IMG/VR virus record: IMGVR_UViG_3300005440_000008
Span: 1-64,000 of that record
DNA length: 64,000 nt
From: a virus
Lineage: Duplodnaviria; Caudoviricetes
Strand: one strand, 5' to 3'
Below the pieces are notes generated by a model that made no database searches, was not told where the DNA came from, and saw nothing but the letters and a program-made list of their open reading frames with translations. Position 1 is the stretch's first letter. Each line of letters starts with the position of its first letter. Shown here piece after piece: positions 15,587 to 37,452 of the stretch. Both the position numbers and the translations under genes were made by a program.

Positions 15587-16113
15587 GGGCGCGGCTCCCG
15601 GGCGTGCAGCACGACGTCGCGGAGATGCGTGGCCTGACCGGGCGACAGGCTGAACACCACCGCGAAGTCCTCGAGCACCGTCGGGGTGATCCGCCCGAGG
15701 AGCCCGATCGCGCGCGCCTGCGCGAGGAGCTGGCGGAGCGCGGTCCAGTCATCCTGACGGATGACGCCCAGGGCGGAGACCTCGCGGTGGAGCTGCTCGG
15801 CGGTGTACGGAGCCGCGGTCTCGCCGAGATCGGCGACGAGGCGATCGTTCAGGATCCGGAGCAGCTCGGCGGCCGGCAAATGTCCGTGGAGCGCGCGGAT
15901 CAGCCCGCGGTCGGGTGCGGTGAAGGCGCGCGCGGGGGCCCGCCCCATGCTCGGCGCCGGCGTCCCGTTCGCCGGCAGGAGCCGCACGGCCTCGGGGCGA
16001 TCCTTGAGGCAGTCGCCGCAGAGGCCGTGCGTCAGATCATCGGCCGTGGCGCTCTTCAGGCGCGCCTTGCAGAGCCGGCAGCGGACCCAGGCGGCGACGG
16101 ACGTCAGCGGCAT
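15583..16113 (-). CDS. Hypothetical protein with N-terminal Zn finger
   Basis: CRLC...CGDC; coupled to the ATPase gene. Confidence 0.7.
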   Translation of the reverse strand: MPLTSVAAWVRCRLCKARLKSATADDLTHGLCGDCLKDRPEAVRLLPANGTPAPSMGRAPARAFTAPDRGLIRALHGHLPAAELLRILNDRLVADLGETAAPYTAEQLHREVSALGVIRQDDWTALRQLLAQARAIGLLGRITPTVLEDFAVVFSLSPGQATHLRDVVLHAREPRP

Positions 16114-17624
16114 GGCAGGAGGTCCCCGATTGGGACGGCGAGGGTGGCCGAGAAAGTGTTCGATGTGGTAGACGACATCGGACGGTTTCCCGTTCCGGGC
16201 GGCACGATGATCTGGAGCTCGACGACGTCCTCGCGGACGATTGCCTCGCGCACGAGGGCACGGACCACTTGGCGCCGCTCGTCCGGGGTCAGTCGCGCCA
16301 AACCGCGGCGGGCTTGTCGACACCACTGGTCGAGCCTGTTGGCATCCGGCACGCGCGCGCGCGGCTCGAGGAGGGTGCGCTCCTGAATGAGCGCGTCCTT
16401 CTGCTGTCGCATGGCCCTGAGCCGCTCGCTGAGGACGTCCTTCGCAAGCAGTCCATCGGCGTAGAGGTCGAGCAGACGCGCCTCGCGGCGCGCGGCGTCG
16501 GCCAGCGCCTCCTCGAGACGGACGAGGTCCTTCGTGACGTCATGCTGGCTCGCCACGTAGCGCGCCGTGGCGGCGATCAACACGCCGGGCCGACGGATGA
16601 CGCCTTCGACGGCTTTCCAGACCGCCGCGTCGAGCGCCTCAACCGGCAACCGGGGTCCGTCGCAGCTGCGCACCGCCAACGTGTCGGCGCCGCGGCACCG
16701 ATAGTTCGTCGTGCCCCACGGCCCATAGAGCCGGCGGCAGCGGCCGCACCGCAGGAGTCCACGGAGGAGATAGAAGCGCGTGGGGGGGCGCCCGGGGAAC
16801 CGGAGCCGATTCGCGACGAGCTGCGCCTGGGCGAGCCGCCACGTTTCTTCGGAGACGATCGCGGGCGACGGCACGGGGATCCACAGCTCTGCCGGCCGGA
16901 AGGTATACGCCTTCGATGGCGAGGGCCGCGTCCGGCGGCCGTAGAAGCCCGTCCCGTTGTACACCGGGTTGGTCAGGATGGCCCGGACGCCGCCGGGCGA
17001 CCAGTGCCCCCCGCGCTTGGGCCTGAGCGCCAGCCGCCGGAGCGCAATCGCGACGCTGCGAAGGGTGCGCTGCTCGCCGGCGACCCAGGCGAAGATCTGG
17101 CGGATGATCCGCGCCTCCTCCTCGAGGATCAGGAGCTGCCCGGAGTGCATCGGGTCCCGGACGTAGCCGAATGGTGTCTGGCCGCCGACCCAGAGTCCTC
17201 GACGCGCCCGCTCGAGCCGGCCGCCCGCCGTTCGTTGGCGAATCTTCTCCCGCTCGTACTCGGCGATGACCCCCTTCACGTTGACAAACAGTCGGCCTTC
17301 CGCGGTGGCGGCGGGTGCCATCGTGCAGTACTCGACCGGCACCCCGGCCTTATCGAATTCCTCGAGGAGGAGGAGCAGGTGCCCCAGGCTCCGGGACAGC
17401 CGATCCGGATCGTGGACGAGCACGCGCTCGATCGACTTCGCCCGCACCGCCTCGCGGAGGCGCGTGAGGGCCGGCCGCTCGAGGGTGGTCCCGCTCACAT
17501 CGTCCACGAACTCGACCGCTGGCGTCCCGTCGGGCACTTTCGCGCGGAGCTCTCGCAACTGAACGGCCAGACCGTACTTCTCGCTCTGCTCCTCGGTGGA
17601 CACGCGGGCGTAGAGCGCGATCAT
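16104..17624 (-). CDS. Large serine recombinase (integrase)
   Basis: YARVSTEEQ catalytic Ser, DPDRLSR, recombinase domain, LLRCGRC Zn ribbon, coiled coil. Confidence 0.96.
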   Translation of the reverse strand: MIALYARVSTEEQSEKYGLAVQLRELRAKVPDGTPAVEFVDDVSGTTLERPALTRLREAVRAKSIERVLVHDPDRLSRSLGHLLLLLEEFDKAGVPVEYCTMAPAATAEGRLFVNVKGVIAEYEREKIRQRTAGGRLERARRGLWVGGQTPFGYVRDPMHSGQLLILEEEARIIRQIFAWVAGEQRTLRSVAIALRRLALRPKRGGHWSPGGVRAILTNPVYNGTGFYGRRTRPSPSKAYTFRPAELWIPVPSPAIVSEETWRLAQAQLVANRLRFPGRPPTRFYLLRGLLRCGRCRRLYGPWGTTNYRCRGADTLAVRSCDGPRLPVEALDAAVWKAVEGVIRRPGVLIAATARYVASQHDVTKDLVRLEEALADAARREARLLDLYADGLLAKDVLSERLRAMRQQKDALIQERTLLEPRARVPDANRLDQWCRQARRGLARLTPDERRQVVRALVREAIVREDVVELQIIVPPGTGNRPMSSTTSNTFSATLAVPIGDLLPCR

Positions 17625-20513: not shown

Positions 20514-21065
20514 TCAGGCCCGCCGCTCCCACCCCGGAATGGCGCCGGCGAGCAGGCGCTGCGCCTCCCGGAACCAGTCCTGATCGATCAGCACCACGCG
20601 CTCGTCGGGGAAAAACGCTTTCATCCGCGCGAGGCGCACGCGGCTCTTCGCGTCCATCCACCCCTTGACCTCGTGCCACTCGTGGTGGCCATCGGGGTAG
20701 CCCACGCGGAAGTCCGGGGTATAGCGGCCGGTACCACCGGTGACGCCGGTGAACACGAACGTCTCCGCCTCGTAGGCCCAACCGGTGATCTTGCCCTGGC
20801 CCTCGAGAAAGCGGAGGTATCGGGCATAGTTCGATTCCCAAGAGGAGCGAAAGAATTGCCCGCCGAGATCCGCGCGGCGCCCACCGGAGCCGCCGCTATG
20901 ACCGGGGCCTCGACCGCCGCGAATCCGCTGGGCCAGGCTGCAGGCGACGGCATGCTGCAGCGCGCTGGGCGCAGCACCGGTCGAGGCGCGGCGCACGGTG
21001 GCGCGCGCATCCGGGGCGCCGCCACGGGACAGGAGCCGGAGGGCTTCCGCGCGCGTGACGTTCAC
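20514..21065 (-). CDS. Phage PD-(D/E)XK endonuclease (DUF1064-like)
   Basis: FRSSWESNYA, YTPDF, HEVKG motifs. Confidence 0.8.
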   Translation of the reverse strand: MNVTRAEALRLLSRGGAPDARATVRRASTGAAPSALQHAVACSLAQRIRGGRGPGHSGGSGGRRADLGGQFFRSSWESNYARYLRFLEGQGKITGWAYEAETFVFTGVTGGTGRYTPDFRVGYPDGHHEWHEVKGWMDAKSRVRLARMKAFFPDERVVLIDQDWFREAQRLLAGAIPGWERRA

Positions 21066-21703
21066 GTCTGCTCCGTCCGTCCGTCCGCATGGAGCGTGAC
21101 GCTGCGACCCTCGGCGCTGATCGTGACACTGGTGCAGCCCTCGGGGCCGGCCTTCGGTCGGAGATACTCGGCGAGCGGGCCCGATGCGAGATCGATCAGG
21201 CCATCCTCTCCGAGAGCGGCCAGCTCGACTACATCATGGTCGTCGCCCTCGAGGTGTGGAACCGCCTGCCGGAGGCCAAGCGCCGGGCGCTGATCGACCA
21301 CGAGCTCTGCCACGCCGATTGGAACGCAGAGACCGGCGAGTGGACGCTCTGCGCGCACGACGTAGAAGAATTTAACGCGGTCGTCCAGCGCCACGGGGCC
21401 TGGAAGTCCGACATCGCGTCGTTCCTCGAAGCGGCCAGCGTGGCGCCGGTCCAGGGGATCCTCCCGCTCGGTGACGCGGCGGACCTGGTCAAGGGCAAGA
21501 GCTTCGTAGAGGACCTGCTCGAGCCGGGAGGCCTTCTTGAGCGAAGCCCAGACCTGCTTTCCATGCTTCTTGGCGGCCTTCGGCCGTCCCACGGCGACGA
21601 TGTGCGCGCGCTCGATGTCGTGGTGCCAGCGCTCGACACAGTAGGAGATCACCGCGTCGATGTCGGGCCGGAGCTCCCAGTCCTGCTGTTCTTCTTCGGC
21701 CAT
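21062..21703 (-). pseudogene. Putative phage metallopeptidase gene with an internal inversion (21204-21513)
   Basis: N- and C-termini read naturally on minus, but the core (IDHELCH...HDVEEF...RHGAW) reads on plus in the same codon register. Confidence 0.8.
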
Positions 21704-21705
21704 GC

Positions 21706-22911
21706 TCAGGTCTCCCTCGCCAGCACGTAATCCTCGGGTCGCTTGAAGGCCATGGAGCCGTCCGGCTCGCGCCACGTGGAGGCGACCGCGGCCCGCGCGG
21801 TCCGGAGGCCCCCGTAGGCGTTCGGGTCCACCCGCAGGACGTAGCGCTTGAACGTGCCGTCGGGCTCCGCCGTCGAGTTGACGACCTGGACGAGCAGAAT
21901 GGGCTCGTCGTCCGGCACCTCGATGCGATAGAGCGTCCCGTAGCCGTCGGTGTGGTACGGCCGCGCGCCGGTCAGCGCGAGGAAGCGCTCGTGGCCGACG
22001 CGCTCGACCATCACGCGCCGGACCTCGGCGTTGCCTTCGTTCAAGATGTCCTGCCCGGTGAGAACCTCGGGCGTGAGGATGACGCGCTCCGGCACCTGGA
22101 CGCCGCGCCAGAAGTAGTAGCGGGCGCCGCCGGGCCAGGCGACCGCGGGGCCGTCGGCGGAGTGAAGCCGATCATCGACGAGCTGCAGCGCCGGACGCGA
22201 GACGGCCACCACCTCGGAGGCCGTGACGAAAAAGAGCCAGAGGCCCGCCTCGAAGGCGTCCACAAACGGCAGCCAGATGCCGATCCACCGCTCGATCGCT
22301 GCGGGGATCGGGCTCCTGGCCGCGCTCCAGGCCGCGCTCCTGGCCGCGCTCCAGGCCGCGCTCTCGGCCGCGCTCCAGGCCGCGCTCCAGGCCGCGCTCC
22401 AGGCCGCGCTCCAGGCCGCGCTCCAGGCCGCGCTCTCGGCCGCGCTCCTGGCCGCGCTCTCGGCCGCGCTCCTGGCCGCGCTCCAGGCCGCGCTCCTGGC
22501 CGCGCTCCTGGCCGCGCTCCTGGCCGCGCTCCAGGCCGCGCTCTCGGCCGCGCTCCTGGCCGCGCTCTCGGCCGCGCTCCTGGCCGCGCTCTCGGCCGCG
22601 CTCCTGGCCGCGCTCCAGGCCGCGCTCCTGGCCGCGCTCCAGGCCGCGCTCTCGGCCGCGCTCCAGGCCGCGCTCCTGGCCGCGCTCTCGGCCGCGCTCC
22701 TGGCCGCGCTCCTGGCCGCGCGGAAAACCGTGAGATACCCCTGCTCCGCGTCCTCGACCCATCGCACCGGCAACACGGGCACGCCGAGGCGCTCGAGGTG
22801 CTGCCGAATCGCGACCTCGGCGGCCCGGCGGTCGATGCGCGGCGCTGCGTGGTCGATGGCCGCGAGGCGATCGATCAGCCGCTGCGCGACCGCCGGGATG
22901 GCCGTGGCCAC
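21706..22911 (-). CDS. DUF6745-type protein with SAA(R/W/E) tetrapeptide repeat
   Basis: C-terminal LHSADGPAVAW...YFWRGV...NAEVRRVM...NSTAEPDG...YVLRVDP; GTG start. Confidence 0.8.
   Translation of the reverse strand: MATAIPAVAQRLIDRLAAIDHAAPRIDRRAAEVAIRQHLERLGVPVLPVRWVEDAEQGYLTVFRAARSAARSAAESAARSAAWSAAESAAWSAARSAAWSAARSAAESAARSAAESAARSAAESAAWSAARSAARSAARSAAWSAARSAAESAARSAAESAAWSAAWSAAWSAAWSAAWSAAESAAWSAARSAAWSAARSPIPAAIERWIGIWLPFVDAFEAGLWLFFVTASEVVAVSRPALQLVDDRLHSADGPAVAWPGGARYYFWRGVQVPERVILTPEVLTGQDILNEGNAEVRRVMVERVGHERFLALTGARPYHTDGYGTLYRIEVPDDEPILLVQVVNSTAEPDGTFKRYVLRVDPNAYGGLRTARAAVASTWREPDGSMAFKRPEDYVLARET
22312..22719 (-). repeat. 12-bp coding tandem repeat, about 34 copies
   Basis: AGC GCG GCC [AGG/TGG/GAG]; only the fourth codon varies. 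Confidence 0.97.
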
Positions 22912-37231: not shown

Positions 37232-37452
37232 GCCTCGCCGACGCGATCCTCTACGAGGCCAGCTTCCAGATCTGGCTCGAGGGCGACGCCTGCCACGACC
37301 GGCCCGACAACCGTGAGGGGTGGATCTACCGATCGCCCGAGGAGCGCGTCGCCCTGGCGCTCAAGCACGCGGCCGAGCGGGCAAAGGTCGCGGCGATGAC
37401 GATCCACCGAGGCCCACGCGACCGCCTGGCGGCCCGGAAGGAGCGCGGCTGA
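37228..37452 (+). CDS. Hypothetical protein
   Basis: Coupled overlaps. Confidence 0.5.
   Translation: MSLADAILYEASFQIWLEGDACHDRPDNREGWIYRSPEERVALALKHAAERAKVAAMTIHRGPRDRLAARKERG

Follow-up and report, generated by a model that had tools for sequence, protein, structure and literature searches.

An in-frame 300 bp inversion inside a putative PF18894 metallopeptidase gene of an uncultured phage

The peptidase gene at 21062..21703 on the minus strand contains an inverted segment of exactly 300 bp, which places the catalytic half of the gene on the plus strand. Judged by its sequence, the gene is a disrupted, and not an intact, member of the PF18894 family. With moderate confidence, we attribute this arrangement to a one-off, microhomology-mediated and non-polar inversion that recently inactivated an accessory gene. 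The window, which is the whole stretch of 64,000 nucleotides analyzed here, comprises the first 64 kb of a complete virus genome of 104,033 bp with direct terminal repeats and a GC content of 70.5%. The phage is uncultured, and its genome is a metagenome assembly.

Genomic context

The peptidase region is a tightly packed operon on the minus strand. Directly upstream of the peptidase gene lies the gene of a DUF6745 repeat protein of 401 aa (21709-22911, minus strand), and downstream lies the gene of a DUF1064/TnsA-like nuclease-like protein of 183 aa (20517-21065, minus strand). The 183-aa gene is followed by two small genes, ParB, two more small genes and a large serine recombinase of the integrase type (506 aa, 16104..17624, minus strand), which is composed of Resolvase, Recombinase and Zn_ribbon_recom domains. 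The recombinase gene is 3.4 kb away from the peptidase segment and is described here as context, with no shown action on the segment. The presence of a serine recombinase and ParB suggests a temperate or plasmid-like lifestyle.

Both neighbours of the peptidase gene have features of their own. The 183-aa protein gives weak matches to DUF1064, to the N-terminus of TnsA-like endonucleases and to the PHROG 'Holliday junction resolvase', and these matches suggest a PD-(D/E)XK-type nuclease beside ParB. The DUF6745 protein contains about 150 residues of near-perfect SAA(W/R/E)SAA tandem repeats, and all six frames are open in this part of the gene.

Structure of the split gene

The as-is peptidase ORF has 213 codons and a stop; it is among the genes called in the ENA and Logan assemblies and is composed of three pieces. 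The N-terminal piece (65 codons, 21509..21703, minus strand) encodes the N-terminal helix and the β-sheet part of the PF18894 domain. It aligns with positions 2-53 of the Pfam profile PF18894 with an E value of 0.034 and 14.6 bits, and in BLASTP it matches the homologues P0001 (1e-9) and P0003 (3e-9). The middle piece is the inverted segment (300 bp, 100 codons, 21209..21508, plus strand), which carries the catalytic half with the motifs HELCH, HDVEEF and RHGAW. This piece matches positions 61-129 of PF18894 with an E value of 1.4e-17 and 64.4 bits, where the threshold for membership is the Pfam gathering score of 23.7. The C-terminal piece (48 codons, 21065..21208, minus strand) encodes the variable C-terminal tail in frame, and its tail motif SVTISAEGRSVTLHADG aligns with SVTITARGRTITIHPEG of the homologue P0019 in the correct order. 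The whole as-is 213-aa product of the minus strand gives no Pfam match. An earlier note, made from the letters alone, had described the gene as starting on the minus strand, carrying its catalytic core on the plus strand and ending in a minus-strand tail, and the Pfam matches of the separate pieces bear out this strand split.

On the minus strand, GGGAG is located 8 nt upstream of the peptidase ATG (21703), and this ATG is 2 nt past the TGA of the upstream gene. At the other end, the TGA of the peptidase gene overlaps the GTG start of the 183-aa gene in a GTGA stop-start overlap (21062..21065, minus strand), and the gene calls of both other assemblies contain the same 4-nt overlap with the downstream gene (3639 versus 3642). 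Since the native start and stop signals are both on the minus strand, the inversion is internal to a minus-strand gene. The codon boundaries are common to both strands, so that the minus frame crosses the flipped piece without a stop codon and ends at the native stop. With the frame uninterrupted, the coupling to the downstream gene survives the inversion.

The restored protein was obtained by computationally joining the N-terminal piece, the flipped middle piece and the C-terminal piece, and it has a length of 213 aa. It aligns with P0001 in a single HSP over residues 9-149 (3e-36), and with P0019 in a single HSP over residues 22-208, in which the C-terminal tail is included. We compared the restored protein and the as-is frames with a family profile built from 90 homologues, all of which were retrieved using the middle piece only. 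Against this profile, the restored protein reaches 164 bits in one domain, gap-free across the joint between the N-terminal and middle pieces. In the as-is arrangement, the PF18894 domain is not on one continuous frame or strand: the minus frame gives 42.5 bits for positions 3-64, all from the N-terminal piece, and the plus frame gives 115 bits for positions 54-138. In a 60-member alignment, nine of the nine invariant family residues are kept, as are 10 of the 11 near-invariant columns. The invariant set, which includes HExxH, HD.E.F and R.G, is present in this gene.

The inversion is balanced, with no base gained or lost, and flipping the 300 bp restores both the frame and the tail. The restored junctions read ...GTCCTCT/CCGAGAG... 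and ...TTCGT/AGAGGATGG..., which on the sense strand of the gene correspond to ...CAGGTCCTCT/CCGAGAGC... and ...AGCTTCGT/AGAGGATGGCC.... The earlier note held that flipping gives a seamless 213-aa protein and named an alignment of this protein with the phage metallopeptidase family as a check. Both come out as proposed, the former as a precise in-frame inversion that yields a single domain, and the latter through the one HSP with each of the two homologues.

The PF18894 family and its predicted fold

The relatives of the gene are proteins of 150-220 aa, and the domain is continuous on one strand in every relative retrieved. The pieces of this gene jointly carry the full domain (HExxH, HD..EEF and RHGxW), but in this gene its coding sequence is divided between the two strands. 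An FtsK-gamma DNA-binding domain is additionally present in some family members, a feature reminiscent of SprT and Wss1, proteases that depend on DNA. A cultured example of the family is ORF14 of Bacillus phage phi105, which is labelled 'transposase' or 'putative phage metallopeptidase'. The label 'transposase' is attached to PF18894 homologues in PHROG 513 and in two phi105 records (NC_004167.1 and NC_048631.1, at about 35.27-35.62 kb), and it looks like a propagated misannotation. No PF18894 member with tested activity was found, and the peptidase function is putative.

No solved structure was found among the sequence relatives of the gene, and the fold was tested on the natural homologue P0001, the closest full-length relative, and not on the protein of this phage. 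The P0001 model has a pLDDT of 89. Compared with known structures over residues 7-135, it matches selecase (4qhf) with a Z score of 9.0 and an rmsd of 2.8 for 95 aligned residues, abylysin (4jiu) with a Z score of 8.4, jannalysin with 8.3 and the SprT domain of Spartan (6mdx) with 7.9. Foldseek alone gives a weak match for the same model (E 0.05). On the basis of this model, the PF18894 domain resembles the minimal zincins, among them the minigluzincins selecase and abylysin and the SprT domain, with a zincin fold that forms one compact catalytic domain. The joint between the N-terminal and middle pieces falls in a loop that follows the helix formed by P0001 residues 57-62, just ahead of the DYIMVV strand. 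Since the N-terminal and middle pieces appear in the model as parts of one compact zincin domain, the split is predicted to destroy both the fold and the activity.

Repeats, breakpoints and reading frames

The inverted segment is bounded by TCCTCT on the left (21204-21209) and AGAGGA on the right (21508-21513). By sequence inspection, the left arm extends to TCCTCTcCGA (21204..21213) and the right arm to TCGtAGAGGA (21504..21513), which agrees with the reverse-complemented left arm in 9 of 10 bases; the positions and the match are exactly those given in the earlier note. Beyond these 10 bases, no similarity between the arms and no flanking symmetry was found. A perfect palindrome, CTCTC-c-GAGAG (21206-21216), overlaps the left arm, and it may have favoured strand switching or may be there by chance. 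A change-point analysis of codon usage favours a plus-sense island by 55 nats, with the right breakpoint at 21505-21508 and a loose left breakpoint, from 21167 to 21209.

The chance of such a repeat was simulated at random places in this genome, with in-frame repeats and with tolerance for the left breakpoint. A repeat of 6/6 arose in 4.3% of the trials (P 0.043), and one of 9/10 or better in 0.9% (P 0.009). Given the freedom in placing the left breakpoint, the repeat thus exceeds chance only to a modest degree. It is probably related to the inversion event, and it constitutes a microhomology, not a recognisable recombinase site. No second inverted pair of the repeat motif was found in the genome; one further copy of TCCTCTNCGA, at 37247, is unpaired.

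Regarding the reading frames, the antisense frame with the same codon boundaries is open in 64-74% of the 100-codon windows of this genome, and the other two antisense registers are open in 13-18%. These rates imply that a random inversion of this size would have a chance of about 12% of keeping the frame without a stop. An open frame in both orientations is unremarkable, since it is expected at 70% GC. The observation that the segment is stop-free both ways is thus true, but it loses its standing as a notable feature. In a genome-wide scan of codon usage for further in-frame flipped segments, the signal was too noisy at 70% GC.

Assemblies and the search for the other orientation

The identical as-is 213-aa product, with the same neighbours, is encoded on the ENA contig ERZ27264733 (104,072 bp) and on the Logan contig SRR5456958 (88,671 bp). 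The consensus is inverted in all three assemblies (IMG/VR, ENA and Logan), which possibly go back to one read set and whose contigs hide minor variants. The Logan contig terminates within the DUF6745 gene, and the repeats of this gene are the probable cause.

No restored form is present among 5.8 billion protein clusters (lengths 55-2000 aa), where the best match to the catalytic piece has 55% identity. Gene products of this phage itself were not found beyond the two other assemblies, and a degenerate junction pattern fitting both orientations has no match in viral contigs or metagenome contigs. The absence of the restored form is weak evidence, since assemblies hide minor variants and the phage seemingly comes from one population. 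A scan for the other junction gave two matches (L029 and L030), and both were rejected as chance. L030 shares nothing else with the phage. The match in L029, a metagenome contig (274-301, minus strand), covers 33 of 35 bases within a conserved C-terminal motif of HtpG/Hsp90, LLDQAILSEGGQLED, and it arises because IDQAILSESGQL, the plus-strand reading over the as-is left joint, happens to resemble this motif.

No related loci were found with the catalytic piece as the query. With ParB and the 183-aa neighbour as queries, 24 related phage loci were found (L005-L028), with 39-64% identity, and no PF18894 gene was found near any of them. Thus, these relatives offer no syntenic orthologue by which the inversion could be dated, and the peptidase gene is accessory, since related phages are without it at this place.

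We also searched the genome for enzymes that could turn the segment around. The complete 104-kb genome contains no tyrosine recombinase (PF00589), and the search with PF00239 finds one serine recombinase, the large integrase-type protein of 506 aa; a small serine invertase of the Hin/Gin type was not found in the phage genome. If the arms were attL and attR sites of a large serine integrase, dyad-related half-sites would be expected around the common core; this reading is not supported, as no similarity past the 10-bp core was seen, although such symmetry can be weak. A promoter inverton was rejected, as no promoter-like or terminator-like site was found in or near the segment.

Discussion

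In the course of events that we favour, replication template switching or illegitimate recombination would have joined TCCTCT and AGAGGA (6 bp, or 9/10 in the extended arms), and the 300 bp between the arms would have been turned around with bases neither gained nor lost. The HExxH helix and the other conserved residues would then have come to lie on the wrong strand, which would switch the enzyme off. The as-is product would consist of the N-terminal sheet, 100 residues of antisense read-through and the native tail, and it is predicted to be inactive. Ribosomes would still reach the native stop, since the length of the flipped piece is divisible by three and the antisense register into which it falls is, at 70% GC, open more often than not. 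The GTGA coupling would be kept as well, so that the mutation would be non-polar and tolerable, and this non-polarity may be the reason why the inversion could rise to dominance. Because no conserved residue has decayed, the inversion appears to be recent. We infer the mechanism, the irreversibility of the event and the dispensability of the gene.

Several observations argue for a one-off event. The inversion is precise and balanced, and flipping it replaces the two partial matches of 42.5 and 115 bits with one gap-free match of 164 bits. The breakpoints have microhomology only (6/6 or 9/10), and the genome holds no other pair of the motif and no invertase-type enzyme. Only the inverted form is recorded, the gene is accessory and the open antisense frame is expected from composition alone. 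On the other side, the record of only the inverted form comes from one population, perhaps a single sample, and a minor orientation is invisible in contigs. The full set of invariant residues would fit equally well with a switch maintained by selection, and the rate of about 12% for in-frame, stop-free inversions mildly favours selection or design. Of the three options that the earlier note left side by side, an ON/OFF switch, a one-off rearrangement and a chimera, the one-off rearrangement is the best fit.

A switch, which the title of that note had favoured, would be a reversible intragenic inverton, in which a site-specific recombinase of the host, or the serine recombinase of the phage, flips the segment between ON and OFF states and the sampled consensus is OFF. 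We regard this as possible but doubtful. The inverted repeats lie exactly at the breakpoints (P about 0.01-0.04), the flip is codon-precise, both states are translatable with downstream coupling, and the invariant residues are all intact, as expected of an ON state that is still used. A serine recombinase gene is also close by. The fim switch of E. coli has about 300 bp and 9-bp repeats, dimensions similar to those of this segment with its 9-10 bp repeats, so a host-supplied site-specific system would be compatible with such short repeats. Moreover, bacteria are known to carry intragenic invertons of the 'recoding' type (Chanin et al., bioRxiv 10.1101/2023.03.11.532203; PMC10028968). However, the ON orientation is seen in no assembly, protein-cluster collection or contig collection searched. 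The repeat has 6 perfect bases (9/10) without flanking symmetry, and no further pair of sites is present. The sole recombinase of the phage is a large serine recombinase of the integrase type, and neither a Hin/Gin-type nor a tyrosine invertase, and at this GC content, an open antisense frame can arise without selection. In its fuller form, this explanation would be an ON/OFF inverton in a SprT-like peptidase gene, with 9-10 bp repeats and no phage invertase, turned over by a recombinase of the host or, in what would be an unusual role, by the large serine integrase, and with the coupling kept in both states; in this form we judge it rather unlikely.

It is also conceivable that the inversion is absent from the phage DNA and arose in amplification, library preparation or assembly, although we consider this very unlikely. 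In favour of an artefact, the genome was assembled from a metagenome, a single read set may underlie all three assemblies, and fold-back chimeras arise at short reverse-complementary sequences in multiple-displacement amplification. Nevertheless, three pipelines agree on the inverted product within contigs of 89-104 kb, and a repeat of 6-10 bp is far under any assembler k-mer and too short to mislead a de Bruijn graph. An assembly error is therefore unlikely, and the assembly chimera named in the earlier note recedes accordingly. A library artefact is improbable, as it presupposes a pair of matching chimeric junctions, each of which would have to displace the true path and become dominant, which random chimeras would hardly do. 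Lastly, the as-is arrangement could itself be functional, either as a recoded 213-aa hybrid on the minus strand or as a stand-alone catalytic half in the as-is plus frame (213 aa, 21089-21730, plus strand). Both 213-codon frames are open, and the plus frame has its 115 bits against the family profile. However, the 100 antisense-coded residues of the hybrid match no family, and the plus frame is without the N-terminal sheet of the single compact domain. The plus frame also has no ribosome-binding site before its ATG, opposes the packed minus-strand operon and does not appear among the called genes of any assembly, and such open frames are commonplace at 70% GC. We therefore give this last explanation hardly any credence.

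Taken as a one-off event, the inversion can be placed beside known systems. Schofield, Agbunag and Miller, writing in Genetics in 1992 (132:295; cited as ref. 71 in PMC11040001), reportedly provide an example of spontaneous inversions between short inverted repeats. The inversion in this phage is like such events in being precise, balanced and intragenic, in its inverted microhomology of <10 bp, in the predicted abolition of function and in needing no dedicated recombinase. Such events are monomorphic in the population examined; for this uncultured phage, the consensus of the three assemblies agrees, and fixation is known at the level of assemblies, in which minor variants do not show. The classical invertible segments of phages, G/Gin of Mu and C/Cin of P1, have an adjacent dedicated recombinase and longer sites, and these systems and fim swap alternative functional modules or a promoter. 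This phage shares with Mu and P1 a DNA inversion in a phage genome, and the size of the segment and the repeats is near that of fimS. In contrast to these systems, it shows no adjacent dedicated recombinase, no long sites, no swap of modules and no promoter-like site in the segment.

Among inversions within genes, an inversion of 24 bp, bounded by inverted repeats of 8 bp, is known to be fixed inside an E. coli antitoxin gene (PMC4272514). Compared with this micro-inversion, the segment here is 300 bp instead of 24 bp, and the frame and the downstream coupling are kept. The likeness to the recoding invertons of bacteria is that the segment is wholly within one gene, has inverted repeats and, when flipped, recodes the middle of the gene without a stop. 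However, recoding invertons were recognised from reads covering both orientations, and invertases are held responsible for them, whereas here one orientation is seen, the repeats are very short and no invertase-type enzyme is present.

As a one-off inversion, this locus would show, in a clean natural case, how an accessory phage gene can be silenced through a short inverted microhomology with no polar effect on the following genes. It also calls for caution in annotation, as gene callers give a 213-aa 'hypothetical protein' without a family while the peptidase domain is hidden on the opposite strand. If both orientations prove to be present, the locus would add a phage gene, that of a SprT-like peptidase, to the short list of intragenic phase switches and would point to a recombinase able to act on very short sites.
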